This document shows positions 8,375 through 53,276 of a stretch of DNA of 64,000 nucleotides, piece after piece. Both the position numbers and the translations under genes were made by a program. This DNA comes from Lentimicrobiaceae bacterium (GTDB taxonomy: Bacteria > Bacteroidota > Bacteroidia > Bacteroidales > JAAYJT01): the NCBI GenBank assembly GCA_037446395.1, contig JBBIIP010000002.1:53074-117073 (forward strand). The letters run 5' to 3'. Under the pieces are notes generated by a model that worked only from the letters and a program-made list of their open reading frames with translations, was not told the DNA's origin and did not search any database. The first letter of the stretch is position 1. Each line of letters opens with the position of its first letter.

Positions 8375-8413
8375 AACTGCATGATTTATTCAGGAATATT
8401 TATTTTACAGTTG

Positions 8414-8773
8414 CTAAATTTTATCAAGGCCGTAGATTTTTGAGCTCCACGGAGAATATCTTTTTGAAACCCTTTTGATTGTCATCACCGTATTTTCTGA
8501 ATCATGGATTTCGGAGAAATAGAGGATGAGAGCCATGCTGATGGCAGCATTTACCTCGCCCGTAATATTCAAATCTTTTTGGTTGGCTTGTTTGAATTTG
8601 CCCTGTTTGTTTAATTTCTGCCGGAGATTCATTTGAATGACTCTCGGGATTAAGGTATAAACGTAATAGAGCGCTACCAATGCTAAAAACACGATCACAT
8701 AGCCGACAACAGTCACCGTGAGGGCAAATCCATCTATTGCCGATAAATCAAAACTTATTTTGGCCAGTTCCAT
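8414..8773 (-). CDS. OadG-like small membrane subunit of the decarboxylase
   Basis: 119 aa with a single N-terminal TM helix. It sits between the carboxyltransferase and biotin-carrier genes, as delta/gamma anchor subunits do. Assignment is mainly by context. Confidence 0.6.
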   Translation of the reverse strand: MELAKISFDLSAIDGFALTVTVVGYVIVFLALVALYYVYTLIPRVIQMNLRQKLNKQGKFKQANQKDLNITGEVNAAISMALILYFSEIHDSENTVMTIKRVSKRYSPWSSKIYGLDKI

Positions 8774-8800
8774 AGTGCGATTGGTTTAGAAGGTATTTCA

Positions 8801-26900: not shown

Positions 26901-27300
26901 TGCCTTGCAGGCCCATCGCGCGTCCGTCGTCGGGCGAATAGATGCGAGCAATTCCGTAGGTGTGCAATTCTTCGATCTCGTGAGGCAGGATTACTCCACC
27001 GCCTCCTCCAAATATCTTTACATGGTCTCCGCCTCTTTCCTGCAACAAGTCATACATATACTTGAAATATTCCATGTGCCCGCCCTGGTATGACGATATA
27101 GCAATACCCTGCACATCTTCCTGTATGGCACATTCTACAATTTCGTTAACCGAACGGTCGTGCCCTAAATGGATTACTTCCACACCGGTAGCCTGAATGA
27201 TGCGCCGCATGACATTAATGGCAGCATCATGCCCGTCGAACAAAGAGGTTGCTGTAACGATCCGAATGTGGTTTTTAGGTTTATAAGGAATGATTGCCAT
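23926..27300 (-). CDS. icmF: Fused isobutyryl-CoA mutase (B12-binding domain + MeaB-like G-protein + mutase substrate domain)
   Basis: 1124 aa. N-terminal B12-binding domain ([13 protein letters not shown]), central P-loop GTPase ([16 protein letters not shown]) and C-terminal methylmalonyl-CoA-mutase-like TIM barrel. This is the IcmF architecture. Confidence 0.9.
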
Positions 27301-29817: not shown

Positions 29818-32063
29818 GACTCTACCTCCTTCGCATCTATCATAACCGTATTACTTTTCACCTTAAACAGCGAAATTCTACCTTTGCTCACACACATTTC
29901 AAAATCAACTGCCAAACTGAGCTTATTCAGCACAAACTGCCTGGTTTCTGCTTTCATCACGATACTGCTATCAACCAGGTTATCATCATTTTTAAGGTAA
30001 TACAGGGTATAATCTGCTGTTATGAAAGAATAAAATGGTGCAATAAAATCGTGCCAGAATAAGGCAAATCCTTTTTTAAAAGCACTTAGCGGATAAATAT
30101 CTTTAACTTCAAGTTTATTGTAATAGCCAAGTACAATTTTATAAGCTGCCAGGTAAAAGAAATAGAGAAAAGAATCTTTGTCGCCTTCAAAATGGTTGAA
30201 ATAAAACAAGTCTCCATCGCAGTGAAAATAAGCTTTTGATAGGGTTTCCCGGCATTCAAGATAGGTGTTATTATACATGTCTGACTTAACATCCAAGTGC
30301 TCTTTTTTCATTGGCTTACCATTTCTGTTCGTTTCAAAGCTCAGCGTTTGGCCCGGAATAAAACCGAATGTCTTCGATAAAGCTTCGTTTTTTACAGTAC
30401 CCGACACAAGTTGCCCTTTGAGTGGCCTGTCGTAGGTTTCTAATTGGTAATGATCTTTTTCTTTGACGAGATAATAGGCAAATGGATAATCAATGGTTTT
30501 TGAGCCAATGAACGGATCGGACTGGATCTGGAAGTGTAGGTGAGGCACAACCGATCTCCCCGAATTGCCGCACTGGGCAATGACCTCTCCCTTTTTAACA
30601 TAAGCGCCTTTGTAGGTTTTAATACTGCCCATCTTCAGATGGCATAGCTTGGTGTAGATTTTGTCGGAGTGTTTGATGACGATGGTATTTCCCCAATTGT
30701 TTCCCAAATTCATGTCGCCAATGGCATTATCCGGAATTCCTTGCAGAATTTCCTGAACCACTCCGTCGGCCGGTGCCAGTACAGGTTTTCCAAAACAGTA
30801 AAAATCCTTTTGTTCGAGGCCCATCCTGTCAAAATTCTTGCCTTCCTCATCGCAAATCTCGAAATCCCAGGCATGGCGCCAATCCTCTTTGTGGGTGTGT
30901 TCACCATTGTGGCCTTGAGAAACCACCCATTCGCCCATAAACGGAGGTGTGAGTTGGGTCGAAGTATTTACATCGAACCGTGATTTGTAGTTATTCTGGG
31001 AGTATAAATTTCGCTCAGGGGAAAATTGCTGAACCACCACGAGTTCAGGGCTATTGAAATGCCTTTCTCTGAACTTTAACACATACAGAAACAGCACCAC
31101 AATGATATTGAATGCAAGCGAATAAATGGGTAGGCCCAGCAGGTTAAATAACAAGCTGGTAGAAATAATAATGAAAGAGATGATGGGGGTGAGAAGAATA
31201 ACCCACAGAAATGAGTATTTTGACGGTACTATAAAAAAACCACCGATTGCAATGGCACTCAAAATATAGTTGAAGCCAATATAGCTGTAATTGAGTTCGG
31301 CCAGGTTGGCGCCGATCAATACATAATAGAAATAGGCAGCAAAAAAACCGAGAATCGAAAGCAGGAATGCAATTCTGGAATATATTAACAAGCCGATGGC
31401 CACAATCGCACCGGCCAGCAGGTGATATTGAAAGAAAATGGCAGCCAGCGATTTGAAATAGGTCGAAATGGAAGGATGCATAGGTAAATCGTTGACCCAG
31501 TAATAAAGCTTCACCATTTTTATCCCGCCATGTTCATAGATTTCGTTAAGTAGAAACAAGCCACGCTCACTCATGGCAAGAGCTGAAAACTCGCGCGATG
31601 CCAGGCTCACTATCCAGATGCCCAGCAAAAAAGCCCAACTCAGAGAGGGCAGTCCATACTTGCCAAAAAAACCATCTAGCCAAATGGTGAGCATAAATGT
31701 CAGAATAGCCGAAAACACCAGCACAAAAAAGAACTCGATGCCAGGCTGATAAAAAATGCCCATACCCAATCCAACCAGCAAACTGTTAAACCCATAAAAC
31801 CCCTGGGTTACCGTGTGTTTCCTAAATCCTATCGCGACTGCTGCCAAATTGGAAACAAATACCGCAATTAAACCACTCAGCCCTGCGATCCAGTCGAAAA
31901 AAGTAACAAGCAATAAGATGAGCGCAAAGGATTTTTGTTTCGAAAAAAACACCTGACTGTAGCTCAGAAGCACTCCTTCGCTGAAAAGGATGATATTTTT
32001 CTCGAGTTTTTGAATCATTGTGCCCGTTTCATGGTTGGAGATTATAAAGCAATCAAAGCTCAA
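29814..32063 (-). CDS. Urea-transporter-like polytopic membrane domain fused to an M23 metallopeptidase domain plus a C-terminal domain of unknown function
   Basis: About 340 aa of densely packed TM helices starting with the UT-like SQVFFSKQ motif. Then an M23 domain (HAWDF, GNSGRSVVPHLHFQIQ), then about 200 aa with no recognisable motif. Alternative start at M16 (32018). Confidence 0.65.
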   Translation of the reverse strand: MSFDCFIISNHETGTMIQKLEKNIILFSEGVLLSYSQVFFSKQKSFALILLLVTFFDWIAGLSGLIAVFVSNLAAVAIGFRKHTVTQGFYGFNSLLVGLGMGIFYQPGIEFFFVLVFSAILTFMLTIWLDGFFGKYGLPSLSWAFLLGIWIVSLASREFSALAMSERGLFLLNEIYEHGGIKMVKLYYWVNDLPMHPSISTYFKSLAAIFFQYHLLAGAIVAIGLLIYSRIAFLLSILGFFAAYFYYVLIGANLAELNYSYIGFNYILSAIAIGGFFIVPSKYSFLWVILLTPIISFIIISTSLLFNLLGLPIYSLAFNIIVVLFLYVLKFRERHFNSPELVVVQQFSPERNLYSQNNYKSRFDVNTSTQLTPPFMGEWVVSQGHNGEHTHKEDWRHAWDFEICDEEGKNFDRMGLEQKDFYCFGKPVLAPADGVVQEILQGIPDNAIGDMNLGNNWGNTIVIKHSDKIYTKLCHLKMGSIKTYKGAYVKKGEVIAQCGNSGRSVVPHLHFQIQSDPFIGSKTIDYPFAYYLVKEKDHYQLETYDRPLKGQLVSGTVKNEALSKTFGFIPGQTLSFETNRNGKPMKKEHLDVKSDMYNNTYLECRETLSKAYFHCDGDLFYFNHFEGDKDSFLYFFYLAAYKIVLGYYNKLEVKDIYPLSAFKKGFALFWHDFIAPFYSFITADYTLYYLKNDDNLVDSSIVMKAETRQFVLNKLSLAVDFEMCVSKGRISLFKVKSNTVMIDAKEVES

Positions 32064-33411
32064 ACTTTTTTAGGTGCACTGGCATTTTTTCCAACGCATT
32101 GAAAACCGCCATTGTTTCATTTTCGCGGATTATATGCACCTGGCTATCTGCATCAATTAGAACCACCTTTGGCCTGAGATTGATAAATTGCATCCACTGC
32201 GACATGTTGTAGGCCCCAACATGATGTATCACAAAATGATCGCCTTTGTTGAGCAGCGGAAGCACGGCGTTTTCGCGAATCACATCAATATTCATACACA
32301 AAGGGCCATACATAGTGGTTTCTTCGGTATATTGAGAGAACTCCTGGGCAGGAGTTATTTTATGATCATACCAGAACGAAGTAAATAACAAATTGATGCC
32401 AATATCAACAATGGTAGTTCTTTTGCCTGTTGACGAACGCTTATTTGAGATCACGGTTCCCAGCAAAAAGCCTGCTTCGTCAATTAAGGCGCGGCCCGAC
32501 TCAAGGATTAAGAGGGGCAGGTTTTCGGGAGGAAATTCAACAGCCAGCAGGGCAGAAGAAATTTCTTCGGCATAATCTTCGAACGATGGGGTTGTATCTG
32601 CACTCGGAAGATATGCACCTTTGAGTGTATTACGCGAGGGAAAACCTCCGCCAAGGTCTATGTATTTGATATTGTGGTTATAACGCCGCTTCAATCCCAA
32701 CGCCAGGTCAGAAAGTTTGGCTGCTGCAATGGCATAGGCCTTGGGGCTTAAAATATAGGTTCCAATATGGCAATGAAGCCCCACCAGGTCCATTTTGGCT
32801 GCTACCATGATTTTGTTGAGTGCATCCCAGGCCTGCCCGTTTTCATAATTAAACCCGAAACGGTCCCAGATGGGATAAATACCCGTATCCATGTTTACCC
32901 TGATGGCAACACGCGGGCGCTTTTCAAGCTTTTCGGCGAGCTCGGTAATGGTATAAAGCTCGTCGAGGTGGTCAATATGAATCAAGGAGTCGTTTGTGAT
33001 TGCCTTCGTTAGATCAGCCGTGGTTTTATCTGGCCCGTTAAAAATTATTTTGTTTCCCGGTACACCATTTTTAATGGCTTTATCGTATTCAAACCCTGAA
33101 ACTACTTCCGCCCAAGAGCCTTCCTGGTGGTAGATATTGCAAACTGCATCGAGATAATTTGTTTTGTATGACCATGCAAACTGAACTTTTGGATAACGCA
33201 TGGTAAATGCTTTTTTTGCTTTTTTGTAGGTGCTGCGAATACTTTTTTCGGAGATTACAAACAGTGGCGACCCATAGTCGGCAACCAGCTGGTTTACCGG
33301 CACCCCATCAATATGGGTTTTTGGGGTGCGATCAATCCGTCCGCCAAATTTGTTTGGCATCTCGGTTTCGAGGCGCTTGATGATAGGGCGTTCATATTTC
33401 AGTTTTTCCAT
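32053..33411 (-). CDS. Fold-type III PLP-dependent decarboxylase (Orn/DAP/Arg decarboxylase family)
   Basis: PLP-lysine context FAWSYKTN, HCHIGT, DLGGGFP, LILESGRALI, GPLCMNIDV and VGAYN match the DAP/ornithine decarboxylase family layout. Substrate unknown. Confidence 0.8.
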   Translation of the reverse strand: MEKLKYERPIIKRLETEMPNKFGGRIDRTPKTHIDGVPVNQLVADYGSPLFVISEKSIRSTYKKAKKAFTMRYPKVQFAWSYKTNYLDAVCNIYHQEGSWAEVVSGFEYDKAIKNGVPGNKIIFNGPDKTTADLTKAITNDSLIHIDHLDELYTITELAEKLEKRPRVAIRVNMDTGIYPIWDRFGFNYENGQAWDALNKIMVAAKMDLVGLHCHIGTYILSPKAYAIAAAKLSDLALGLKRRYNHNIKYIDLGGGFPSRNTLKGAYLPSADTTPSFEDYAEEISSALLAVEFPPENLPLLILESGRALIDEAGFLLGTVISNKRSSTGKRTTIVDIGINLLFTSFWYDHKITPAQEFSQYTEETTMYGPLCMNIDVIRENAVLPLLNKGDHFVIHHVGAYNMSQWMQFINLRPKVVLIDADSQVHIIRENETMAVFNALEKMPVHLKKFEL

Positions 33412-33468
33412 AATACTTGTGTCTGTATTTTCGATTTAAATGTTGATGATTGGATGATTCATAATTTG

Positions 33469-34524
33469 CTAAAGTTCTGCGTTTGTAGAGATTTGTTGAA
33501 ACTCCTCAATGTCAACAATCATATCCCAGGCATAACGTACGAACATTTTTCCAACCTTGTATCCAGTGAACGAAGAAACCGGCTCCCCCAAAGCAAGCTG
33601 CACCAATGCTTCCGGAATATTCTGCCCCACACCAACAGCCAAGTATATCCAGGCGGGCATGCGCGGATTAATCTCCAGAAGATAAAAGTCGTTGTTTTTG
33701 TCTTTCATCAATTCCAGTTCAAAACCCCCGCGCCATTTTGTCTGGCTGATAAAACGGTGGGTTAATTCAAGAATTCGCGGATCGGCAATAGAAATACCGC
33801 CCCAGGCTTTTCCCTTGTCGGTGATGTACTGTTTTCGCATGGGTACTGCCGCAATCGTGTTTCCAAAGCCGTCGCCCAAACCGGTAACGTTGAACTCGGC
33901 TCCATGTATAAACTCCTGCACTATGACCGGAGCCCCCCATTTTGCAGTGATTTTGTTGAAAAAATTTTTTGCCTGATCAACATTATATGCAACATAAGCA
34001 TCGTAGTATTTCCCTTTGACCAGCACAGGATATTGAAAATCCTTAGTTATGCTGTGCAGTGAAACCAGCTCGTGATACACTTTGCCTTTTGGGACCTTGA
34101 TGTTGTATTTTTTTCCAAACTCATCGAGGTTTACTTTGTGTCGTTCCTCGAATTGCTCCATGGTGGGCAAAAACATATGAATGCCGAGCTTCTTAAGTCG
34201 TTGCTCAAGGCGGATGAAAGGATACAATTCTGAATCGAAATTAGGAATAATTACATCCAGTTTTTCACGAGAGTGTATGTATTCCATCCGTTCAATAACA
34301 GCTTCGGTTCCTGCTGAAGGGTAGGGCACCTGGTAAGTTTTATCCACCAGGTTATGCATAAAAATTCCCGGCTCAAGAGATTCGTATGCCAATCCAATGA
34401 TGCGGCAATCAAATGATGTGGCCTCCTTTAGTCCGCGGATTACTGCAACCCCAGGGCCTGGACTGTCAATTGCATTAAGGCCTGAAACTGCAATGGTAAG
34501 TTGTTTTTTTTCAGTCATTTTCAA
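33469..34524 (-). CDS. ATP-grasp domain ligase
   Basis: PVLVKGKYYDA, VIVQEFIHGAEFNV and LLEINPRMPAW are ATP-grasp (carbamoyl-phosphate-synthase-like) motifs. Substrate unknown. Confidence 0.75.
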   Translation of the reverse strand: MKMTEKKQLTIAVSGLNAIDSPGPGVAVIRGLKEATSFDCRIIGLAYESLEPGIFMHNLVDKTYQVPYPSAGTEAVIERMEYIHSREKLDVIIPNFDSELYPFIRLEQRLKKLGIHMFLPTMEQFEERHKVNLDEFGKKYNIKVPKGKVYHELVSLHSITKDFQYPVLVKGKYYDAYVAYNVDQAKNFFNKITAKWGAPVIVQEFIHGAEFNVTGLGDGFGNTIAAVPMRKQYITDKGKAWGGISIADPRILELTHRFISQTKWRGGFELELMKDKNNDFYLLEINPRMPAWIYLAVGVGQNIPEALVQLALGEPVSSFTGYKVGKMFVRYAWDMIVDIEEFQQISTNAEL

Positions 34525-34756
34525 CGAGTGAATAATGTCCGAGCAGCCCTATAAAATCTTCAAAATCCTTTTCGAATGTTGCAAAATCAATACTGTATTT
34601 TTCGGAAACCAACGTGGCAACTTCTTGTTGACCTTTTCCGTCTTTCAGAAAGTTGATAATTTCTGCACCCATGGGATTCACAGTAAAAGACTCACCAGTG
34701 TCCGGATTAAAAATCAAACCGGATGCGCTTACCGCAATGTTTTTTTTTATTTTCAT
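34511..34756 (-). CDS. PqqD-family (RRE-like) small protein
   Basis: 81 aa. The pattern ..SGLIFNPDTGESFTVNPMGAEIINFLKDGKGQQEVATLVSEKY..D..DFIGLL resembles PqqD/RRE domains. The 3' end overlaps the ATP-grasp start by 14 nt. Confidence 0.65.
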   Translation of the reverse strand: MKIKKNIAVSASGLIFNPDTGESFTVNPMGAEIINFLKDGKGQQEVATLVSEKYSIDFATFEKDFEDFIGLLGHYSLVEND

Positions 34757-34788
34757 GACGGGATCTATGTTTGTTTTATAGATTCATA

Positions 34789-35580
34789 CTAATAAATCAA
34801 GAGTTTTTCGGCCTTGGATTGATAATTTCGGGCCCGAAGAAAATAAAGATAAATCCCGGCCGCGTATTCAGAAGCAGGGATCTGTAAGTGGTTTGTGTCA
34901 TGCCCGACTTGAATTGTTTTCAATATTCTTCCTTCCAGATCGGTGATGACCAATTCTGCAGATGGAATTCCATTCGGCAATTCATAGCGTATGGTCGTAA
35001 ACTGCGATGCAGGATTGGGAAATGACCCTCTAAGTCCACCCGGTAGGCCTTCAGGCTCATTGGTTTGTGTGATTAATTGGCCGGGAAGATTGAAAACCTT
35101 GGTTTGAATCGAATAGGGATTGCTCGAATAATCATAGCTATATGCAAACATTTTGGTGCCAACTCCGGCAATGTTATACACATAAACATACTGGCATCCT
35201 GGTATTGACAAAAGCTCAGTACCGTTTTCCTTCACTACTTTGGCCGTGTAGGTATAATATTGGCCGGTGGAATTGTAATTATAATATATATAGATTAGGC
35301 ATAATGTATTGTCGGTTGTGAAAAGGTTTTCCGAAACATATTTGATGTCATACAAATAATTATTCACCGGAACATTCAAACTCAGCGTTTTCCATAGGGC
35401 GTGGTTTGTATTATAGATTCGACATTGGCTCGTGGATATGTCCATTAAAAAATACTTGTAACCTGAATTGGCAAGCCGGGTGTATGTTGCAGAATGACTA
35501 TATGTGGCTTCCAGAGAAATCTGGCTGAAAGCAATCCCAAAAAATAACGACAAAATGATTGTAAAGGCAACTTTTTTCAT
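34789..35580 (-). CDS. T9SS C-terminal-sorting-domain secreted protein, function unknown
   Basis: Signal peptide. The C-terminal ~80 aa (FPNPASQFTTIRYELP...VITDLEGRIL...AGIYLYFL...) is a type A T9SS sorting domain. Confidence 0.75.
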   Translation of the reverse strand: MKKVAFTIILSLFFGIAFSQISLEATYSHSATYTRLANSGYKYFLMDISTSQCRIYNTNHALWKTLSLNVPVNNYLYDIKYVSENLFTTDNTLCLIYIYYNYNSTGQYYTYTAKVVKENGTELLSIPGCQYVYVYNIAGVGTKMFAYSYDYSSNPYSIQTKVFNLPGQLITQTNEPEGLPGGLRGSFPNPASQFTTIRYELPNGIPSAELVITDLEGRILKTIQVGHDTNHLQIPASEYAAGIYLYFLRARNYQSKAEKLLIY

Positions 35581-35633
35581 TGAAAAACATTTATTATTTA
35601 TACAAGGTGCTCTAAATTAATAAAATACAGAAC

Positions 35634-36449
35634 TTATTGTTTGATGATTTTTAGGACCTGTTTCTTGTTTCCTTGCTCTGCAATGAAAAAGTAAATACCT
35701 TTATCAACAATGTGGCCGCTCATGTCTTTGCCATCCCAAGTAAACTCATTTTCATCCGAGCGGGCTTTTGGGTTAAAAATGAAGTGCCTCAGGTTTCGTC
35801 CCAGATTATCGTAAATTTTCACATTGACTGGCAATTTGCTTTCGCTTCTTAGTGCAATATGGGCGTATTCCGAAAATGGATTTGGGAAGCAATCAAATAT
35901 TATTGTGTTTGCTAATTCATCCTGTATTCCAACTGTTGATTTCGGAATCCATTGCAATGACATGTTTGTAAAATTAGTTTGATTTGCAGGTGTAAGGGTT
36001 TGCGCTTGCGGGCCTTTGCTGAAAGGTATATAATGCAGTTTACCGGTAGCATTTGCCGAAGTAAATTCAATATAAATCCGGTAATTGCCATCGGGAACCA
36101 GGTTGCCATTGACATCTTTTCCATCCCAGGAAACCGAGTGCGTGATATGGTTTGGCAAAGTTGGCCCGGTAATGGCATCAATAACATTAAAAGTATTGCC
36201 GGTAGCATTCCGGAAGTTAGTAAGGTATTGCCTATAAACGGGATGTTGGGCCAGAAGTTTTCGTGTTTTAACCCATTGAGCATTTTCGTTGCTTATCCAT
36301 ATAGCGAATATATGCAAAGGCGAATAAGGAGCTGAGTAATTAATCGTAGTGACTGAAAAAGAAAGAGTGCCGGGAGTTTGGCAATACAACACAGGTGCCG
36401 CTAATAAGCAGAGTACCAAAAGCCATGCTTTCAATATTTTATGTTTCAT
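35634..36449 (-). CDS. T9SS C-terminal-sorting-domain secreted protein with FlgD-Ig-like and possibly DUF2271-like modules
   Basis: Signal peptide. SWDGKDVNGNLVPDGNYRIYI is a FlgD-Ig-like motif. The N-terminal PYSPLHIFAIWISNENAQWVKT resembles DUF2271, but that is a weak call from memory. C-terminal CFPNPFSEY...VKIYDNLGR...GIYFF is a T9SS sorting domain. Start moved to ATG 36449 because a -7 box overlaps the ORF-track start. Confidence 0.7.
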   Translation of the reverse strand: MKHKILKAWLLVLCLLAAPVLYCQTPGTLSFSVTTINYSAPYSPLHIFAIWISNENAQWVKTRKLLAQHPVYRQYLTNFRNATGNTFNVIDAITGPTLPNHITHSVSWDGKDVNGNLVPDGNYRIYIEFTSANATGKLHYIPFSKGPQAQTLTPANQTNFTNMSLQWIPKSTVGIQDELANTIIFDCFPNPFSEYAHIALRSESKLPVNVKIYDNLGRNLRHFIFNPKARSDENEFTWDGKDMSGHIVDKGIYFFIAEQGNKKQVLKIIKQ

Positions 36450-36458
36450 AATAATACG

Positions 36459-36466
36459 CAAAAATA
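36459..36466 (-). promoter_or_regulatory. Candidate -7 promoter box (TATTTTTG)
   Basis: The reverse complement of caaaaata is TATTTTTG, about 10 nt upstream of ATG 36449. This implies a near-leaderless transcript. Confidence 0.25.
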
Positions 36467-36535
36467 CAATATTGAGGATTAAAAATGGCGTGAAATTCAG
36501 TTGTTTAAGTGTTTTTTCATCGAAGGATTCATAGG

Positions 36536-37549
36536 TTAGCTTTTTCTAATTGCATCTTGTGGGCAAATATCCTCGCACTTGCTGCACTTTTGGCATCTCT
36601 TCTGGTCAATCACGGCTTTATAACGCTCAACCGCAACCGCTTCCGAAGGGCACAACGCAGCACAAACACCACAATTATTGCAGATATTTTGATTCAAAAC
36701 AGGTTCGGAATACTCCGTAGGCGCAATAAAATATATTGCCTCGTCGGGGCAGGCAGGATAACAATTTCCGCAACGAATACACTTCTTCAGGTCAATATAC
36801 GGTTTGGTATTTGTCGGATTTCCTTCCTTGGTGATTCCATTATCGGTGCACACCTGGAAGCACTTTCCACATTTTATACATTTGGTTTGATCAATGGCAA
36901 CCTTTGCCTTAATGATGGCATTGTATCTGCATTTATTAAAGCACTTTCCGCAACGTGTGCATTTGGACGTATCTATAACAGCCTTATTATTAACTTTTCT
37001 GATTGCAGCCGAAGGGCAAACCGAAGAACACTCAGATACACAACCCTGGCAACGCGAATTAATAACCGAATAATATTGAACCGTATACTTTATGGCGTTC
37101 CCCTGCAAGGCACAGGCCTCAATGCACTTACCACATCCAACGCAATTGCCCGATATACTATACTTAAGAGCGCTGGTAGGCAATACAATGGCGTTTGATT
37201 TGCACACCGGAAGGCATTTGCCACACAAGGTGCACTTTTCTGGGGTGATGAAAAAATCAATAGAAGTGATTTCGATGGCTTTTACCTTGCAAGCATTTTC
37301 GCAAATGCAACAACTGATGCATTTCTCTGGCAAAATTGAATACTTGCTCCGCTGGGGCAACACCACAGCGGAATAATAGCATACATCAAAACAAGCACCG
37401 CATCCGATGCATTTTTCATCAATCACTTCATAAGCGGCATAAAGCCCTTCATCGGTGCACGACTTTATTGCGGGTGCAACCATCAAAAGCGCGCCACCTT
37501 TGAGAAGCTTTCCAATAAATTCCCTGCGTTGATATTTGTTTGGTTCCAT
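36536..37549 (-). CDS. Tat-signal polyferredoxin with ten [4Fe-4S]-type cysteine motifs
   Basis: Twin-arginine leader QRREFIGKLLKGGALLMVAP. Ten motifs spaced about 30 aa apart: CIGCGACFDVC, CISCCICENAC, CTLCGKCLPVC, CVGCGKCIEAC, CQGCVSECSSVC, CTRCGKCFNKC, CIKCGKCFQVC, CIRCGNCYPAC, CNNCGVCAALC and CQKCSKCEDIC. Confidence 0.85.
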   Translation of the reverse strand: MEPNKYQRREFIGKLLKGGALLMVAPAIKSCTDEGLYAAYEVIDEKCIGCGACFDVCYYSAVVLPQRSKYSILPEKCISCCICENACKVKAIEITSIDFFITPEKCTLCGKCLPVCKSNAIVLPTSALKYSISGNCVGCGKCIEACALQGNAIKYTVQYYSVINSRCQGCVSECSSVCPSAAIRKVNNKAVIDTSKCTRCGKCFNKCRYNAIIKAKVAIDQTKCIKCGKCFQVCTDNGITKEGNPTNTKPYIDLKKCIRCGNCYPACPDEAIYFIAPTEYSEPVLNQNICNNCGVCAALCPSEAVAVERYKAVIDQKRCQKCSKCEDICPQDAIRKS

Positions 37550-37579
37550 GTTTCAGTTCAATCTTGTTTTAATGGCAGT

Positions 37580-38842
37580 TTATAAGCTAACCCTGAATTC
37601 GAACCTTCCCAGAAAAGCATCATCTTTCAGTAGGTTGCTTTTTATAAAACCTCCAATCGCGCTTGCCTGCATGTGTTTCCCAATTTTTTTTACAATGGCC
37701 AGGTCAAGTTCCTGCATTGGGTTTTGCCTGGTCTGTAATATATATTGCAGTTTCAGGTGGGTTCTGATTTCCGGAAGCCTGTATCGGATGGCTAACTGAA
37801 CGAAAGGCAAATCCATGGCGTCGAGACGAAGCACATTTCCGGCAAAAATATTGCTAAAAGAATTCAATGCTTTGGCGTTGGCATCAAGTGCGTAGATTCC
37901 ATAGTAGCGCAAATAAAAATGCGTTCTGCTTTTCGAGCCATTGAGCGACTTTTCGAGCCCTAGTGTAAATATTAAGGCTTGATTGTTTTGAGAAGCCTGG
38001 TATAAAATTTCGGGCTTAAAATAGATGTCTGCCGGTAATCGAAACTCAGAAAACAGCCCACCAATAAACACATTTTCCGGAACCCATGATCCAAACTCAT
38101 CATACAGGGCAATACCTGCTGTTTCGAGCGAAAATTTTCTTGAACCAGAAGTTTCCGTGCCAATTGCATTTGAGAAACCATCAGGCGAAAATTCATCCAG
38201 GTTTTCCGTTGATTGCTTTTTTGTCATCTTCGAAGGGGTGAATTTGAAAGTTACCCCGCTGAAATTTGTCTGACCGGGTTTGTTTCCTATCAAAGGCAAC
38301 TGGCGGCCTGGAATGATGTCGTAAAGATAGCTGACGGCACAAAAAATTCCATTGCGGGCAAAATCCTTGGTGACTGTTCCGCCAGAAAAATTCACTGCCC
38401 ATGCGCCTTTTGTGTGCTCATAATTAATGCCGATCATTCTTTCGTTGAACAGGTAGTCGTCGTCAAAACGTGCCGATTGCAGCCCGAGAGTAATTCTCCC
38501 AACGGGGCTTCGATATTGGTAAAACAATTCACGCAGGCCAAAATGCTGGTCGCTGAAGCTGGCATCTTTTTCCAGGTCGTAACGATACCAATACTTAAAT
38601 CCACCCTCGATATAGAACGTAGATTTTTCACCCGAACGATCTATGCCCAAATAGCCCATACCATTTATGATTGAATTATCTGTCAGATAACCAAGCCCTC
38701 CGGTGATTTCGGAACCAACGTAAAACTTGCTCTTACCGATGGGCTTCAAAAATGCGGCCAATTGGCTGGGACATTCCCATTGAGCCAACAACCCCAATGG
38801 GAGGGCGATCAAAAGCAGAATTATAAATAATCCTTTTCTCAT
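37580..38842 (-). CDS. Outer-membrane beta-barrel-like protein, function unknown
   Basis: Signal peptide (LLAQ). 420 aa rich in alternating aromatic/G/S/N beta-strand patterns, with a C-terminal ..GRFEFRVSL. No enzymatic motif. Confidence 0.6.
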   Translation of the reverse strand: MRKGLFIILLLIALPLGLLAQWECPSQLAAFLKPIGKSKFYVGSEITGGLGYLTDNSIINGMGYLGIDRSGEKSTFYIEGGFKYWYRYDLEKDASFSDQHFGLRELFYQYRSPVGRITLGLQSARFDDDYLFNERMIGINYEHTKGAWAVNFSGGTVTKDFARNGIFCAVSYLYDIIPGRQLPLIGNKPGQTNFSGVTFKFTPSKMTKKQSTENLDEFSPDGFSNAIGTETSGSRKFSLETAGIALYDEFGSWVPENVFIGGLFSEFRLPADIYFKPEILYQASQNNQALIFTLGLEKSLNGSKSRTHFYLRYYGIYALDANAKALNSFSNIFAGNVLRLDAMDLPFVQLAIRYRLPEIRTHLKLQYILQTRQNPMQELDLAIVKKIGKHMQASAIGGFIKSNLLKDDAFLGRFEFRVSL

Positions 38843-38849
38843 TTTGTGG

Positions 38850-40265
38850 TCAAGAAATAGTGATTGAATTCTTTTTACAACTGCCTATGCAATCGCCACA
38901 GAAAATACAATCATGAATATTTAAGTGGCTGCTTCCACTTTCATAAACGATAGCATGGGTTTTGCAAGCATCGCTGCAGCGCTTGCAATCGGCACAATTT
39001 TGGGTTTTTGTTATGTTTTTTGCGCCGGGCAAATGCGAGACACCGGCAAGCACTACCCCCACCGGGCAGAATCCCCTGCAAAAGGGGCGGTATATCATTA
39101 CAGACAGCAGCAGCAAAATGACGAGCAGCACGTATCCGGTCGTATTGGCCGAAAAAAGGTTGAAAGCCATTTTGAAAGGGTCATAATGAATGAAAATATT
39201 GGTTTGGGTGATTGTAAGCTGAGCAATCAGAATGACCAGGACCACAATACGTAAGTACCTGAGGAAAGCTTGAGCTTTGAGACTTTTTAGAATGTGCAGC
39301 TTGTCGGCCTGAAAAAGAAACTCCTGTAGCCCCCCCAAATGGCAAAGCCAGCTGCACCAGATTTTTCCAAAAAAATATGTCAGGGGAACCAAGGCCACAA
39401 ACCAAATCAGTGAAATCCAGGCCACCTGCTGACCAAGACCCGCCAGCACAAGGTTTTGAAAACTTAAAATCATGCAAGGACATCCACCCTTTATAAACCC
39501 CAGGTAGACAACAGTTGCCAATAAAAACAAACCCCGAAATTTTCTGAAAGATTCATTTTTTATGAAAAAACTGATCACGATCAAAACCGAGAAAAGTATA
39601 GCCAGCTCAATGAGAAATCGTTTGTCGGCCTGGCTCATTGTTCGTCCTGATTTTTCGGAAGCGGCTGCGGTATTTTCGCCGGTTTGAAACTCTGTGGCGG
39701 CAAATTCATCATCAATTGGCGCAAATTCATCGTTGGCAGAAATCAAGGCGGTATCGGAAATGGTTTCTTGCATTGCATCAGGTGCATCAACCGAACCCGT
39801 TTGTTCAGTTACAACACCTGAGAGCGGCTCAAAGTCTTCGTGCATTGGCAAGAATTCAGAATTTACAGCCGTATCATGTAAAACTCCGATAACAGGGCTA
39901 CTTTCCGTCTGGCAGCTCTCGGGCTGTTGGCCAGCTTTTTGGGTTTGAAAAGCGATGACTGCCACCATTGATATCGCAACCAAAGTGGTTATAATCCAAT
40001 AAATGCGCCTTGCTTTATATTTGCCGTGGAAATAAAAAGCCAACAAAAACAGTAACACTGCAAGCAAAATCAACCTGAACAAATCGCTGCCAGTGGAGAA
40101 ACCTGCCGAAACAGGTTCGCTACAGCCTGAAAAAGAACATCCACTCGCGCAATCTTTGGCTTGCAGGTTTTTAGCAAAACCTTTTAGGTTGAGGAAAACA
40201 GAGAAAACTACAAACCATGCGAAGCGACCAAACCAGTTTGTCGCCAGTTTTAATTGATTACTCAC
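38850..40265 (-). CDS. NapH/MauN/RdhC-like polytopic 4Fe-4S-binding membrane protein with an N-terminal extension
   Basis: Family-typical membrane-proximal Cys motifs (GGCPC, IWCSWLCHLG, RPFCRGFCPVG). Two C-terminal ferredoxin motifs (CADCKRCSDAC, CIFCGDCIGSC). An extra N-terminal part of about 210 aa has a Cys-rich loop and an acidic linker. Confidence 0.75.
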   Translation of the reverse strand: MSNQLKLATNWFGRFAWFVVFSVFLNLKGFAKNLQAKDCASGCSFSGCSEPVSAGFSTGSDLFRLILLAVLLFLLAFYFHGKYKARRIYWIITTLVAISMVAVIAFQTQKAGQQPESCQTESSPVIGVLHDTAVNSEFLPMHEDFEPLSGVVTEQTGSVDAPDAMQETISDTALISANDEFAPIDDEFAATEFQTGENTAAASEKSGRTMSQADKRFLIELAILFSVLIVISFFIKNESFRKFRGLFLLATVVYLGFIKGGCPCMILSFQNLVLAGLGQQVAWISLIWFVALVPLTYFFGKIWCSWLCHLGGLQEFLFQADKLHILKSLKAQAFLRYLRIVVLVILIAQLTITQTNIFIHYDPFKMAFNLFSANTTGYVLLVILLLLSVMIYRPFCRGFCPVGVVLAGVSHLPGAKNITKTQNCADCKRCSDACKTHAIVYESGSSHLNIHDCIFCGDCIGSCKKNSITIS

Positions 40266-40271
40266 CGAGAG

Positions 40272-40640
40272 CTATGTTTTTTTGAGTTTCAGGGTGCCCA
40301 TGCCTCCTTCTTTCTGGCATTTACGCGTCAGGGTGAGGATGGCTTCAGTTTTATCGTCTTTTAAAAGCTCGAGTTTAACCTGGCGGGTATAAGTTCCTGG
40401 CGATTTTTCTTTCCATGGGGTGGCGCCCAAAATCTTCATTCCATCGTAAGTGAATTTTGTTTCAGAAAGTTCAATTTCGCATTTGCGATGCGTATAAACA
40501 ACCGTAACTTCCACAATGAGCTCTTCTCCGGCCTTATATGCTTCTTTTTTTTCGCCCGAAATATCAAACTTTACTTCACAAGCCTTGCCGATTTCTGCAA
40601 AAATCAGCATCAGAATCGCAAATAAAAACAATTTCTTCAT
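40272..40640 (-). CDS. Small secreted protein (3 Cys), function unknown
   Basis: 122 aa. Signal peptide MKKLFLFAILMLIFAEIGKA/C. The mature part looks beta-rich. First gene of the Fe-S operon. Confidence 0.55.
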   Translation of the reverse strand: MKKLFLFAILMLIFAEIGKACEVKFDISGEKKEAYKAGEELIVEVTVVYTHRKCEIELSETKFTYDGMKILGATPWKEKSPGTYTRQVKLELLKDDKTEAILTLTRKCQKEGGMGTLKLKKT

Positions 40641-40721
40641 TTTGATTGTAGTGGGTATTTGATTTATAATCTGTTTTTAAAACGAGGTTTTTGGCTTTAA
40701 GATATTTTAAACCGTTCGGCT

Positions 40722-40729
40722 CAAATCTA
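40722..40729 (-). promoter_or_regulatory. Candidate -7 promoter box (TAGATTTG) for the Fe-S operon
   Basis: The reverse complement of caaatcta is TAGATTTG. An ATTG lies 21 nt further upstream as a weak -33. The box is 82 nt upstream of ATG 40640. Confidence 0.3.
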
Positions 40730-40942
40730 CCTGTTAGACAAATAAAGCATCAATAACTTGCAGGATTTGCGGCCAACCATTTACTGCAATAGATTCGCCA
40801 AAATTATGCCACATCAATATCGTGGTCGTTATATTTTTCTCGAATAATTGTATAAGATTTTAAGAAATCAGGCCGAACAATGCCTGTTCCATTTATATTT
40901 GTCCGGTTTAATAAAACATTCATGTAATTGAGTCTACGAAAA

Positions 40943-41992
40943 ATGAACACATTCACATATAAACGAATGTTTCTTCCTGATATTTTAAAAGGCATTGCAG
41001 TAGTCCTGATAATACAGGTTCATGTGATGGAACTATTTGCAGTGCGGGACATACTCAGCAGCCTGGCCGGAAGAATATCCCTTTTTTTAGGCGGGCCGCC
41101 AGCAGCTCCTGTTTTTATGGCGGTGATGGGCTACCTGATTGCAAAATCATCGAAAGGATTTCAAAGCAATATTATCCGTGGAATGAAACTCATAATCTGG
41201 GGCTTTCTGTTAAACCTTGGGATGAATGCCCATCTGTTGGTGAAAATTATAAAAGGCAGCATTCAACTAAATCCCTGGCCGTATATTTTTGGTGTTGATA
41301 TTTTCTTCTTAGCAGGTTTTAGCGTTCTGATTATCGCAGTGTATAAAAAACTGTTTCACAACCAAATTCTTCCCTGGTTGTTGCTGGCGCTTTTTGCCGC
41401 TGCAGCCCGTTTGTTTCTGCCGGTTTATGATGGGAATCAACCGTGGGCTCTTTACCTGCAGGCTTTTTTTACTGGAAATGCAACATGGGCCTATTTTCCT
41501 GTTTTCCCGTGGGCTGCCTATCCTGTGCTGGGGTTTATATTTCATGTCCTGGCTGAAAAATATAGTCTTTCCGCTTTCTCAAACAAGGGACTTTTATACA
41601 TTGCCGGGTGGTTATTCATCGGAGTTGGTGTTTCGTTCAGCTACGGATTTGATATTGCTTCAGATTTATCGGCCTATTATCACCACGACATTCGCTATTT
41701 GCTTTGGGTAACTGGTTTTTTAGGGCTATGGGTGATGATGATAAAGTTGCTCTCCAATCATCGGGAGACGAATATGCTGTTTCGATATTTGCGGTGGGCA
41801 GGAAAAAACGTCACGTCCTTTTATGTAATACAATGGTTGCTGGTTGGAAATTTAGCTACATACATCTATAAAACACAACATGCATTGGCTTTGACCTTCT
41901 GGTTTGTGACGATTTTAGCGAGCACAAGCATCATGGTTTTTTTCTGGGACAGACTTAAAACCTGGCAAAATCCCTCTCATCTTCCGGGTTAG
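40943..41992 (+). CDS. Acyltransferase-like polytopic membrane protein (DUF1624/HGSNAT-like)
   Basis: N-terminal R.FLPDILKGIAVVLIIQVH followed by about 10 TM helices, resembling the DUF1624 / acyltransferase-3 type. ATG 40943 preferred over TTG 40928. Confidence 0.5.
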   Translation: MNTFTYKRMFLPDILKGIAVVLIIQVHVMELFAVRDILSSLAGRISLFLGGPPAAPVFMAVMGYLIAKSSKGFQSNIIRGMKLIIWGFLLNLGMNAHLLVKIIKGSIQLNPWPYIFGVDIFFLAGFSVLIIAVYKKLFHNQILPWLLLALFAAAARLFLPVYDGNQPWALYLQAFFTGNATWAYFPVFPWAAYPVLGFIFHVLAEKYSLSAFSNKGLLYIAGWLFIGVGVSFSYGFDIASDLSAYYHHDIRYLLWVTGFLGLWVMMIKLLSNHRETNMLFRYLRWAGKNVTSFYVIQWLLVGNLATYIYKTQHALALTFWFVTILASTSIMVFFWDRLKTWQNPSHLPG

Positions 41993-42560
41993 GTGTAGCC
42001 CCTAGAAATGTGCGATACTTGCCCGGATCCTTCTTGTATTCGCTCACCGAGATTCCGGTTATAGCTTTAAACTGTTTCGACAGGTACTGCACGCTGCTAT
42101 ATCCCATCATATATGCTATTTCGCTCAAAGTGAGCTCATTATATTGGATCAATTCTTTGGCACGCTCAATTTTTTGATGGATGATAAACTTCTCAAGCGT
42201 AGTGTGTTCCTGCTTTGAGAAAATGGTGGAAATGTGTTGATATGACAGCCCGAACCGCTCGACCAGATAATCTGAGTTACGCACCATGGCATTATAGGTG
42301 CTGTAGTGCACCAGGTTTATCACAGAATGCTTTATCTGCTCGACCAATTGCTTTTCTTTGTCATGCACAAGTTCAAACCCATCCGCTTCGAGCAAGCGGG
42401 CAATTTGCTGAAGATCAACTTTATGTTGATCAAACCTGATTTCAGCTTCACCAGGCTTCACCGTAATCAGTTCCACGCCGGCTTCTGAAAGAATTCTGGT
42501 AACCAGTTTCACGCAACAGTGGCAGGACATGTTTTTGATTATCAGTTTTTTATGAACCAT
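41955..42560 (-). CDS. AraC-family transcriptional regulator with N-terminal heavy-metal-associated (HMA) domain
   Basis: N-terminal ferredoxin-like HMA fold with a MSCHCC metal-binding loop. C-terminal AraC helix-turn-helix (LTLSEIAYMMGYSSVQYLSKQFK). Confidence 0.75.
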   Translation of the reverse strand: MVHKKLIIKNMSCHCCVKLVTRILSEAGVELITVKPGEAEIRFDQHKVDLQQIARLLEADGFELVHDKEKQLVEQIKHSVINLVHYSTYNAMVRNSDYLVERFGLSYQHISTIFSKQEHTTLEKFIIHQKIERAKELIQYNELTLSEIAYMMGYSSVQYLSKQFKAITGISVSEYKKDPGKYRTFLGATPNPEDERDFARF

Positions 42561-42664
42561 CCGTTTTAAAACTTTCAGTGGGTAGCTATTGGTGTGTTCT
42601 ACAAAGTTACATTTAATCCAATTTACCCTATCTTAGCAACCTATTTTATCAAAAAGTATCAAAC

Positions 42665-43663
42665 ATGAGTTTATCAGTAACGCCCGGTAAAAGTGTTTCC
42701 GTAGTAGTGCCATGCTACAACGAACAAGGCAATATAGCCGAGCTTTACAAAAAACTCAATGAAGTACTCGCCGAGTATAATCAGGCAGAAATTATTTTTG
42801 TTGACGATGGCAGTACCGATAGCACGAACGCCATAATCAAAAAACTGACCGAGAATGACAAGAGGGTTCAACTGATCAGCCTGACGCGCAACTTTGGCCA
42901 CCAGTTTGCCCTCAAAGCCGGCCTCGATCATGCTTCAGGCGAATGCGTGATCAGCCTCGATGCCGACCTTCAGCACCCCCCGTCACTAATCCCGGACATG
43001 ATTAAAAAATGGAACGAAGGATATGATGTGGTTTATACACGGCGGCGCGATAATCGGAATTTGCCTTTTTACAAAGGGTTTACTTCTCGCTGTTTTTATC
43101 GACTGGCAAAAATGTTTTCTTCCGTAGACATGCACCCGGGTGCTGCCGACTTTCGCCTCCTCGATCGTGCAGTTGTGGACGTACTGAAAGAATGTCGCGA
43201 AAACTATCTATTCATTCGTGGTCTCGTTTCATGGGCAGGATTTCGACAAACCTGTATTGAATATTCCCCCCAGGATCGTTTTGCCGGAAAAACAAAATAT
43301 TCACTTCGAAAGATGATCAGTTTTGCTTTTACAGGCATCACCTCCTTTAGCATCAAGCCATTGCAGATTTCGCTTATTCTAGGCCTTATCATTGCAGGGC
43401 TATCATTTTTATATGGCCTCTATGTGATTTATGTTTATACTTTTACCAACCAGGCCCTTCCTGGATGGGCGAGCACTACCGCCAGTGTTCTTTTTATTGG
43501 TGGAGTTCAACTGATTATTCTAGGAATTCTTGGGCAGTATGTAGGGATGACTTTTATCGAAAACAAACGCCGGCCAAATTATGTAATCAGAAAAAAAGAC
43601 AAGAATTCTATCCCTCATGATCAACTTCCTGGTGAAAAAACACCCAGTCAGGAGCACAAATAA
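42665..43663 (+). CDS. Family 2 glycosyltransferase, polyprenol-phosphate sugar transferase type (GtrB/ArnC-like)
   Basis: VSVVVPCYNEQGNI, FVDDGSTDST, LDADLQHPP and two C-terminal TM helices. Confidence 0.85.
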   Translation: MSLSVTPGKSVSVVVPCYNEQGNIAELYKKLNEVLAEYNQAEIIFVDDGSTDSTNAIIKKLTENDKRVQLISLTRNFGHQFALKAGLDHASGECVISLDADLQHPPSLIPDMIKKWNEGYDVVYTRRRDNRNLPFYKGFTSRCFYRLAKMFSSVDMHPGAADFRLLDRAVVDVLKECRENYLFIRGLVSWAGFRQTCIEYSPQDRFAGKTKYSLRKMISFAFTGITSFSIKPLQISLILGLIIAGLSFLYGLYVIYVYTFTNQALPGWASTTASVLFIGGVQLIILGILGQYVGMTFIENKRRPNYVIRKKDKNSIPHDQLPGEKTPSQEHK

Positions 43664-53238: not shown

Positions 53239-53276
53239 TAATTTAGAAACCAATCAGATAATTCATAAAAACCGCT

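Follow-up and report, generated by a model that had tools for sequence, protein, structure and literature searches.

A modular class of apparatus built on NapH-like proteins, among them NapGH, NosGH, NosR and PceC/RdhC, lets bacteria deliver electrons to extracytosolic partners, drawing them from quinol or from donors in the cytoplasm (Meheust et al. 2021, PMC8238504). Here we describe a gene unit from a Lentimicrobiaceae bacterium (GenBank assembly GCA_037446395.1, contig JBBIIP010000002.1) that encodes a NapH-like iron–sulfur (Fe-S) membrane protein together with a small cysteine-containing exported protein (s122), an outer-membrane beta-barrel and a polyferredoxin; the whole stretch of DNA that was analysed, 64,000 nucleotides at contig positions 53,074 to 117,073 of the forward strand, is referred to as the window. 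Parts of the unit recall other described systems. NapG is a four-cluster soluble protein, and the MtrB barrel of the porin-cytochrome conduits has 26 strands. MvhB and FwdF, cytoplasmic subunits of hydrogenase/heterodisulfide reductase or formylmethanofuran dehydrogenase complexes, are electron wires in the methanogen complexes that contain them. CcoG (FixG) joins a NapH-family core, two [4Fe-4S] clusters, a transmembrane (TM) segment and a periplasmic immunoglobulin (Ig)-like domain, and reduces a metal ion for delivery, while in Mer systems a soft metal is relayed by Cys pairs, starting at a binding protein in the periplasm and ending at a permease. The window unit belongs with the NapH-like extracytosolic electron-transfer systems and not with Mtr-type conduits, and we tentatively favor a reading in which the NapH-like protein feeds a ferredoxin relay tethered to the membrane; the relay would end at a specific outer-membrane channel and act in the uptake or reductive handling of a small thiophilic substrate.

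An initial annotation, made from the sequence alone, described four co-directional minus-strand genes separated by 6, 7 and 30 nt and proposed that they build the logic of an MtrA/MtrB electron conduit from Fe-S clusters in place of haems. The four open reading frames (ORFs) are present with exactly these gaps, and the unit in the window very probably extends to a fifth gene (40640..35634). Its products and their parts, in amino acids (aa), are listed here with the basis of each assignment; a further co-directional gene closes the list.

40272..40640, minus strand: s122, 122 aa (ORF list)
38850..40265, minus strand: NapH/NosR-type polytopic Fe-S membrane protein, 471 aa, GTG start (ORF and Pfam)
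39948..40265, minus strand: N-terminal extension of the NapH-like protein, with a weak signal peptide, a periplasmic CASGCSFSGC motif and a TM hairpin at residues 62-80 and 88-106 (hydropathy and charge)
39618..39947, minus strand: acidic periplasmic linker of 110 residues, probably disordered, with [D/E/N][D/E]F motifs (hydropathy and charge)
39078..39617, minus strand: NapH-like membrane core, comprising TM3 of the extension and four core helices TM4-TM7 (motifs and hydropathy)
38853..39077, minus strand: C-terminal 2x[4Fe-4S] ferredoxin domain, cytoplasmic (Pfam, topology and gene fusions)
37580..38842, minus strand: outer-membrane beta-barrel, 420 aa (AlphaFold2 and Foldseek)
38783..38842, minus strand: barrel signal peptide, ..LGLLA, with cleavage before QWECPS (translation and gene fusions)
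38144..38221, minus strand: disordered barrel loop, residues 208-233, with the motif DEFSPDGFS (pLDDT, the predicted local distance difference test, below 50)
36536..37549, minus strand: polyferredoxin, 337 aa, with ten [4Fe-4S]-type motifs (Pfam Fer4 and motif positions)
37457..37549, minus strand: polyferredoxin leader with twin-arginine motif QRREFIGK, hydrophobic region and lipobox AIKS-C31 (sequence pattern)
35634..36461, minus strand: fifth gene, DUF2271 with FlgD_ig and a C-terminal sorting domain of the type IX secretion system (T9SS) (Pfam, TIGR04183)
34789..35580, minus strand: 263-aa T9SS-sorted protein whose membership of the unit is doubtful (Por_Secre_tail, 38.8 bits)

A synteny scan of one genome per GTDB species, which combined tblastn with the window proteins and all-against-all clustering of ORFs, gave 47 loci (numbered below with the prefix L). 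Gene order is kept in 47 species representatives, which belong to the Bacteroidales, the Marinilabiliales and one Kapabacteria metagenome-assembled genome (MAG), at protein identities of 34-73% across these orders and the Kapabacteria MAG. The initial annotation had made its proposal depend on the co-occurrence of the 337-aa and 420-aa proteins, and their homologues do occur together in 41 of the 42 informative loci, those with enough downstream DNA, the ferredoxin gene lying directly past the barrel gene in every case except L043. Of the 47 loci, 43 encode an s122 homologue, in most cases immediately upstream of the gene for the NapH-like protein, and 38 encode the NapH-like protein itself. 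Stop and start codons overlap in L048-L050, and in eight loci from different families (L021, L027, L029-L032, L035 and L037) the NapH-like protein and the barrel form a single ORF of 866-899 aa. Together, the four genes form the co-inherited, translationally coupled core of a conserved envelope module of anaerobic Bacteroidota. Chance adjacency of Cys-rich ORFs that form no functional unit can hardly be entertained, given an order conserved at such distances, the fusion of two of the genes in eight loci and a [D/E/N][D/E]F motif common to two of the proteins.

Carriers include Prolixibacteraceae, Draconibacterium, Tangfeifania and Bacteroides reticulotermitis, as well as MAGs of Parabacteroides, Prevotella, Paludibacter, Muribaculaceae, Lentimicrobiaceae and Kapabacteria; those in culture include Draconibacterium aestuarii, Mangrovibacterium lignilyticum, Carboxylicivirga caseinilyticus and Bacteroides reticulotermitis. 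These are Bacteroidota of gut, rumen, termite gut and sediment. The pair of s122 and the NapH-like protein is also found in a Fibrobacteraceae MAG.

The 471-aa protein had been called NapH-type on its motifs, and GGCPC, WCSWLCHLG and RPFCRGFCPVG, together with the C-terminal CADCKRCSDAC and CIFCGDCIGSC, are all present in the translation. Profile searches bear out the Fe-S content proposed for both cluster proteins, the 471-aa protein matching Fer4_5 and a dicluster domain and the 337-aa protein matching Fer4 in at least nine stretches. Pfam places Fer4_5 (PF12801) at 49.2 bits against a cut-off of 22 and Fer4_9/Fer4_7 at residues 423-467. Hydropathy and the positive-inside rule give a four-helix core with both termini and the two CxxCxxCxxxC motifs in the cytoplasm. 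They put GGCPC where TM4 meets the periplasm, and CSWLCH and CRGFCP where helices meet the cytoplasm. The protein therefore has a NapH-type core plus a cytoplasmic dicluster domain. Fer4_5, the four-helix core, the Cys motifs at cytoplasmic helix ends, the cytoplasmic C-terminal dicluster domain, the exported redox partner and, in the window lineage, a flavinylation-type DUF2271 protein alongside are all shared with the described NapH-like systems, and it is because of Fer4_5 and the NapH-like topology with its cytoplasmic dicluster domain that we regard this protein as the electron-input module of the unit.

There are, however, clear differences from the described systems. Only one CX3CP site (CRGFCP) is present, the other having become CX3CH (CSWLCH), and GGCPC is extra. 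An acidic disordered arm and a CxxxC module replace FMN_bind, for which Pfam gave no match in the six unit-region proteins at E<=0.1, and neither Pfam nor NCBIfam detected FixG_C or MerP/MerT homology. NCBIfam scores fall well short of their cut-offs (NosR 69 against 1000, TIGR02163 65.1 against 213, PRK09477 61.1 against 234), database homologues are labeled ‘4Fe-4S binding protein’ and nothing more specific, and a generic dicluster domain was the sole match of the NapH-like protein in a PDB sequence search. With scores below the family cut-offs, no FMN_bind domain and no reductase gene, the system is no NapH, NapG or NosR orthologue.

These differences bear on whether the unit is an ordinary NapGH/NosGH-like quinol dehydrogenase that serves a reductase encoded elsewhere, with the barrel and s122 unrelated to it or providing substrate entry. 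NapH-family similarity and a ferredoxin partner exported by the twin-arginine (Tat) pathway, as in NapG/NosG, speak for such an arrangement, as does the use of NapGH/NosGH-like modules by the clade II nos clusters of Bacteroidota. Even so, we consider it very unlikely: besides NapH, NapF and NosR scores far under their NCBIfam cut-offs, the partner is a ten-cluster lipoprotein and not a four-cluster soluble protein like NapG, the barrel and s122 are more constant companions than the NapH core, fusions of the NapH-like protein to the barrel exist, and no reductase gene recurs in at least 47 neighborhoods. Unlike the described systems, the window unit has no NapA, NosZ, PceA, NirS or ExaA gene, and it has an outer-membrane barrel of its own, which in some loci is fused with the NapH-like protein. 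The initial annotation was right that no catalytic partner is encoded, as no molybdopterin, hydrogenase, haem or flavin-enzyme domain was found in the unit or its flanks and no catalytic gene, molybdopterin or other, in the window unit or in at least 47 related neighborhoods.

Ahead of its core, the NapH-like protein carries an N-terminal extension whose Cys motif reads CxxxC in relatives and which forms a separate 134-aa ORF in L036 and L042, two loci without the NapH core. Between TM2 and TM3 follows the acidic linker, with 21 D/E against 5 K/R. Across 27 NapH-like homologues, [D/E/N][D/E]F motifs number 3.4 per protein against 0.28 in shuffled sequences, a 12-fold enrichment, and among the unit proteins enrichment is limited to this linker and to a barrel loop, in which 39 barrels show 4-fold more of them than shuffled sequences do. 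The motifs that the two segments share may form a docking motif for the basic, Ig-like s122.

The 420-aa protein had been described as barrel-like, and structure prediction supports this. The AlphaFold2 model, built with 36 homologues (pLDDT 84.9; predicted template-modeling score, pTM, 0.79), has 18 long antiparallel strands, and the top 50 Foldseek matches in the PDB are mostly 18-strand outer-membrane channels (OprD/Occ, in Pseudomonas, AlgE, Campylobacter MOMP), at E values of 4e-10 to 1e-7, template-modeling scores of 0.44-0.58 and identities of 6-12%. The sequence itself has no Pfam or NCBIfam match at E<=0.1 and no PDB match at E<=10; its family comprises 136 detectable homologues, of which those with a name are without exception ‘hypothetical protein’ entries of Bacteroidota origin. 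With OprD/Occ, AlgE and MOMP it shares the predicted 18-strand monomeric barrel fold. Unlike them, it has QWEC at its mature N-terminus, Cys168 in a 36-residue loop and a loop with a DEF motif, and shares no Pfam family with them; unlike OprD/Occ and AlgE, it lies in a redox gene context and not in one of catabolism or polysaccharide export. QWEC, Cys168 and many charged residues are invariant in the family. The disordered loop at residues 208-233 is probably a periplasmic turn, judging from strand parity in the model, and 388-aa barrels from loci that lack a NapH-like gene are missing the loop with the DEF motif.

Taken together, the 18 strands, the OprD/Occ, AlgE and MOMP neighbors, the invariant charged residues, QWEC and the Cys168 loop argue for a channel and not a sheath, and the modeled barrel resembles the narrow, substrate-specific channel type. 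The entire lumen of an 18-strand barrel has roughly the width of one dicluster ferredoxin domain, so that the barrel is too narrow to sheath such a domain. A parallel for a small barrel is Cyc2, which shows that such barrels can act in outer-membrane redox chemistry and which likewise has about 400 aa and a conserved Cys-containing segment at its mature N-terminus. The 420-aa barrel differs from Cyc2 in having no haem motif. That it might be related, as a haem-less form, to the Cyc2-like protein whose gene lies at 53277-54461 was considered and rejected, with no detectable homology between the two (BLASTP E 0.28, hhalign probability 1%).

The gene fusions inform both the topology and the production of these proteins. 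At the junction, the dicluster domain is followed by the barrel signal peptide and then by AxA and QWECPS, the signal peptide here being an internal signal or stop-transfer-like segment. Since an export signal follows it directly, the dicluster domain must be cytoplasmic, as in NapH, and the fusions imply that the two proteins are produced 1:1, presumably with signal-peptidase cleavage afterwards. For an outer-membrane protein, to be made in one chain with an inner-membrane protein is an unusual route of biogenesis.

The 337-aa protein contains, as annotated, both QRREFIGKLL and ten Cx2Cx2-3Cx3C motifs. The ten motifs start at residues 47 to 319 with a spacing of 27-33 residues, the equivalent of five dicluster domains, and Pfam Fer4 matches in nine stretches at 158 bits. 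The best solved relatives by sequence are MvhB (1.5e-21) and FwdF (4e-17), with the same tandem-dicluster architecture, but the NCBIfam scores fall well below their cut-offs (VhuB 93 against 600, FwdF 92 against 375). Purely tandem CxxCxxCxxxC dicluster domains are thus common to the window protein, MvhB and FwdF/FmdF; unlike those proteins, it has a Tat leader and a lipobox and is encoded in an envelope operon. The lipobox Cys was overlooked by the initial annotation, and with it the protein is predicted to be a Tat-exported, extracytoplasmic lipoprotein.

The twin-arginine leader is a good motif and recurs among the partner ferredoxins, with a match to RR.[FLIMV][LIFMVA] in 20 of 39. A lipobox-like pattern is present in all 39 (L/I/F/M/V at position -3 in 37, A/S/G at position -1), and the first cluster motif lies some 15 residues past the lipid-anchor Cys. 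The 20 twin-arginine ferredoxins carry 2, 10, 12 or 14 clusters; the other 19 have plain lipoprotein leaders of Sec type and carry 2, 4 or 6, and come from Bacteroidaceae, Tannerellaceae, Prevotella, Paludibacter, one unassigned Bacteroidales locus and one of two Kapabacteria ferredoxins. In some Sec-type proteins (for example L027:11328-12171, L034:7045-8193 and L042:11317-12897), the dicluster domain ends Thr-rich linkers and up to five Big_2 domains, stalks that are typical of surface proteins. At least two acidic residues stand just past the lipidated Cys in 15 of the 39 ferredoxin lipoproteins, resembling the surface-export signal of Bacteroidota. Loss of Tat was considered as a cause of the Sec-type leaders and rejected, as Tat seems to be functional in the seven Bacteroides species examined, which have homologues of TatA and TatC (PMC6281302).

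Because the same barrel pairs with ferredoxins of 2, 4, 6, 10, 12 or 14 clusters, some of them on non-conducting Big_2 stalks, no fixed membrane-spanning length is conserved. This leads us away from the MtrA/MtrB logic of the initial annotation. Its proposal of an electron-transfer role is supported, and the T9SS-secreted DUF2271 protein encoded next to the polyferredoxin further supports an extracytosolic one; the ten-cofactor wire threaded through a porin is not supported, in view of the narrow 18-strand channel, the partner cluster number of 2-14, the 19 of 39 partners without a twin-arginine motif and a gene context of solute type. The likeness to MtrCAB and other porin-cytochrome conduits consists in a periplasmic protein of about 335 aa with ten redox centers beside a barrel, a possible surface partner and the lack of a catalytic enzyme. 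Conversely, the window unit uses Fe-S and not haem, has 18 and not 26 strands, varies in cofactor number and shows no sequence relationship to these conduits.

A trans-outer-membrane Fe-S electron pathway could still take another form, in which electrons would pass from the NapH-like protein to the polyferredoxin, cross at the barrel and reach a surface acceptor (the T9SS-attached DUF2271 flavoprotein or a surface-exposed ferredoxin lipoprotein) that delivers them to minerals, electrodes or partner cells. Crossing could rely on something seated inside the barrel, either a cofactor, like the haem of Cyc2, or a segment, or else on a shuttle reduced at its mouth. We regard such a pathway as unlikely. 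It gains from the ten-cluster chain tethered beside a barrel, from the absence of an encoded catalytic subunit at the loci examined, from the Big_2 stalks and the post-Cys acidic residues of some partner ferredoxins, and from the invariant QWEC and Cys168, by which something might be retained inside the lumen. However, a dicluster ferredoxin domain does not fit within an 18-strand barrel, two Cys alone are insufficient to ligate a cluster, and the barrel has no homology to the Cyc2-like protein. The range of 2 to 14 clusters and the Sec-type leaders in half of the family also stand against it, and the permease and TonB-receptor context of related loci, described below, is better suited to solute traffic. 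A haem-free Fe-S and flavin pathway from the inner membrane to the cell surface, in which the barrel would house or gate a cofactor or shuttle and the Sec-type ferredoxins would receive their clusters outside the cytoplasm, is likewise improbable.

For the small protein s122, the count of three Cys in the initial annotation was correct. Its Sec-type leader ends in GKA followed by C21, which is the first residue past an A-x-A-type cleavage site, or possibly a lipidated Cys. The protein matches no Pfam or NCBIfam family, its AlphaFold2 model (pLDDT 81.4) is an all-beta Ig-like sandwich, and Foldseek gave generic Ig, GAE-ear and AmoB-domain matches alone (best E 1.9e-3). Homologues amount to 243 cluster representatives at E<=1e-3, and among the matches listed all are small, mostly stand-alone proteins of about 120 aa. 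Across 158 representatives, C21, H51, C54, C108, W76 and R106 are 94-99% conserved, making Cys21/His51/Cys54/Cys108 a candidate metal or cluster site. Assignment of s122 to a known metallochaperone or FMN-binding family was rejected, there being no Pfam/NCBIfam match and generic Ig-like folds alone.

The parallel with CcoG and Mer is one of analogy: in the window the Ig-like protein is a separate gene, a barrel and a polyferredoxin are added, and there is no FixG_C or MerP/MerT homology. A further feature of s122 is GAT at residues 72-74, which resembles an ApbE flavinylation site and reads TGAT in L027, so that s122 might be an unrecognized flavinylation substrate. As a flavinylation site it was set aside and kept as a weak lead, with T conserved at 82%, A at 73% and G at 54% and with no leading S/T.

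The genes that accompany the core in related loci point to a small solute. In 29 loci a permease of about 335 aa (ArsP_1, PF03773) with the motif LPVCSCG is found, always with an s122 paralogue; the two genes travel together and can stand on either flank of the core. The NCBIfam models closest to the permease, the SO_0444 Cu/Zn efflux transporter and SaoE, are matched below their cut-offs. Genes for an extracytoplasmic function (ECF) sigma factor, the anti-sigma factor FecR and a TonB-type receptor with a Plug domain lie directly upstream, with overlapping stop and start codons, in the variant that was sampled most often. The same trio occurs in L033, L034 and L039, in gut and rumen-type lineages, and no sequence relative of solved structure was found for the receptor of the related loci. 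DUF2202 ferritin-like lipoproteins and rubrerythrin are encoded near some loci. It is because the ArsP-type permease, a second small Cys protein and the ECF sigma/FecR/TonB-receptor trio share the operon that we propose small-solute trafficking, and the nearby DUF2202 and rubrerythrin genes, the DUF2271 adjacency and the near-invariant Cys3His of s122 support it. Flanking genes that would name the substrate were sought and rejected, as beyond the module the flanks vary by lineage. In Mangrovibacterium lignilyticum (L054:1610-13034), a single case, the whole module (s122, NapH-like protein, barrel, 339-aa ferredoxin, s122 paralogue and ArsP_1 permease) lies directly past nqrABCDEF on the same strand.

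The same context allows for a different emphasis, namely extracytoplasmic trafficking of thiols, soft metal, persulfide or Fe-S for detoxification and efflux or for the maturation of exported ferredoxins. The relay would run over the Cys3His of s122, the CxxxC of the NapH arm, GGCPC, C24 and C168 of the barrel, the Cys/Met of the s122 paralogue and the CSC of the ArsP permease, with the NapH-like protein and the ferredoxin supplying only the power that keeps this relay reduced. The conservation of the Cys residues and the ArsP_1 membership of the permease, with its SO_0444 and SaoE neighbors, are in keeping with this, and ferredoxin domains that leave through Sec would have to acquire their clusters outside the cytoplasm. 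A SufS-like gene adjoining the unit in L003-L005 and a CopZ-like regulator two genes upstream in the window and in L014 also fit. We nevertheless think it doubtful that trafficking of this kind is the main role: to our knowledge extracytoplasmic Fe-S assembly has no precedent, the permease and second paralogue are missing from the window and from about one-third of the loci, the regulator and SufS neighbors are each restricted to single lineages, and a ten-cluster chain seems excessive for thiol reduction.

The fifth gene in the window adds a surface component. Its product scores 43.2 bits for DUF2271 (cut-off 27.3), 29.6 for Por_Secre_tail (27) and 37.2 for TIGR04183 (23), and is predicted from these domains to be a flavinylated cell-surface protein. 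DUF2271 has been shown by experiment to be an ApbE flavinylation substrate, with the site [S/T]GA[S/T], and is associated with reductive iron assimilation (PMC8238504). At the corresponding position the fifth gene reads DAITGPT, both in the window and in L055, a 62%-identical relative in which the DUF2271 gene has the same position and the next gene is on the other strand. Elsewhere, 5 of the 47 loci (L015, L027, L030, L037 and L045) have a DUF2271 gene beside the core, with DxxTGAT or DxxSGAS at the site. Conservation of a T9SS-sorted DUF2271 protein as the fifth gene counts toward electron transfer to the cell surface; its adjoining the unit in a minority of loci counts against it. No ApbE domain was found among the 46 window ORFs scanned. 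The 263-aa T9SS-sorted gene is co-directional and 53 nt downstream of the fifth gene, and was not found in the other loci.

On these grounds we propose, tentatively, the following model for the relay to an outer-membrane channel. The NapH-like protein would take electrons from menaquinol or a cytoplasmic donor and pass them to the tethered ferredoxin. The ten-cluster form would act as a periplasmic wire, ten clusters at typical spacing spanning on the order of 100 angstrom, and ferredoxins with 2-6 clusters or on stalks would instead be tethered shuttles. The relay would terminate at the periplasmic mouth of the barrel, which would probably be the specific gate for a small thiophilic redox substrate; candidates are iron or copper, as ion or chelate, and sulfane sulfur. 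After its reduction at the channel or close by, this substrate would be handed along the conserved Cys of the barrel, s122 and the NapH arm, and in full versions of the module an ArsP-type permease would import it under ECF sigma/FecR/TonB-receptor control. The T9SS-secreted DUF2271 flavoprotein would serve as an accessory extracellular redox partner, and the overall function would be the reductive acquisition of metal or sulfane sulfur.

Several points weigh against this model. We infer the substrate, the direction of transport and the electron path, and uptake in particular is extrapolated from relatives, because the window version has neither the permease nor the TonB receptor. Characterized members of the ArsP family are efflux proteins, and since the SO_0444 and SaoE models also score below cut-off, the direction of transport is uncertain. 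A ten-cluster chain would seem to be more wire than a periplasmic metal reductase needs. Moreover, 19 of the 39 partner ferredoxins have no twin-arginine motif although the seven Bacteroides species examined seem to be Tat-functional, leaving cluster insertion in these proteins unexplained. Finally, the NapH core is missing from six loci with adequate flanks and from the Kapabacteria locus, so that the electron source is not always within the unit.

The wider surroundings of the unit hold a number of separate features. Two genes upstream, at 41955-42560 on the minus strand, lies a regulator in which a CopZ-like heavy-metal-associated (HMA) domain (MSCHCC) is fused to an AraC-type helix-turn-helix domain; it has the same place in the closest relative, L014, is seen only in this lineage and may be a metal-responsive regulator of the unit. 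Downstream, at 29814-34756 on the minus strand, co-directional genes for a PqqD-like protein, an ATP-grasp enzyme, an Orn/DAP/Arg-type pyridoxal phosphate-dependent decarboxylase and a 749-aa fusion of a urea-transporter-like membrane domain and an M23 peptidase look like a separate small-molecule or peptide pathway. An Rfam search at E<=1 across 34000-43000 gave no riboswitch or other RNA match, and promoter-like and terminator-like consensus sites near the operon are no more frequent than in shuffled sequence. Minus-strand genes at 6593-10360 and 23926-27300, for a Na+-pumping decarboxylase beta subunit, a carboxyltransferase and an IcmF-type fused B12 mutase-MeaB, fit the genome of a fermentative anaerobic member of the Bacteroidales.

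The description of the unit as haem-free needs a qualification. None of the six unit-region proteins contains a CxxCH motif, but the genome as such is not haem-free, as a 467-aa multihaem cytochrome c with four CxxCH and one CxxxxCH is encoded at 51835-53238 on the plus strand. It matches Pfam C554, NapC/NirT and c7 and, weakly, NCBIfam ExtKL and OmcA/MtrC. The adjacent plus-strand gene at 53277-54461 encodes a secreted, beta-rich protein of 394 aa, whose one CxxCH (SCQTCH) comes shortly past the leader and which ends in ..STMF. Together (51835-54461) the two resemble a Cyc2-type fused cytochrome-porin and its partner cytochrome; they lie 11 kb away from the Fe-S unit. As a candidate haem-based cytochrome-porin pair in the same genome it gives some encouragement to the idea of Fe-S electron transfer across the outer membrane, in that the organism may live by extracellular electron transfer.

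Literature searches on polyferredoxin or Fe-S outer-membrane conduits, on Bacteroidetes NapH with a lipoprotein and on Prolixibacter corrosion genes turned up no account of this system. What appears to be new is the combination of an 18-strand barrel, a lipoprotein polyferredoxin, a Cys3His Ig-like family, shared DEF motifs and a fusion of inner- and outer-membrane proteins. NapH-like proteins are modular periplasmic electron outlets, most of whose acceptors are unknown, and here one of them is locked to a channel, a polyferredoxin and a Cys3His protein, the gene fusion in eight loci being a very unusual form of lock. The Sec-type ferredoxin lipoproteins further raise the question of how Fe-S proteins mature outside the cytoplasm. 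If the unit serves reductive uptake, it would give anaerobes a new route to acquire metal or sulfur; if, on the other hand, electrons leave the cell, it would be the first haem-free envelope conduit and would extend extracellular electron transfer to a dominant phylum of gut and sediment. The cultured carriers make this question directly testable.

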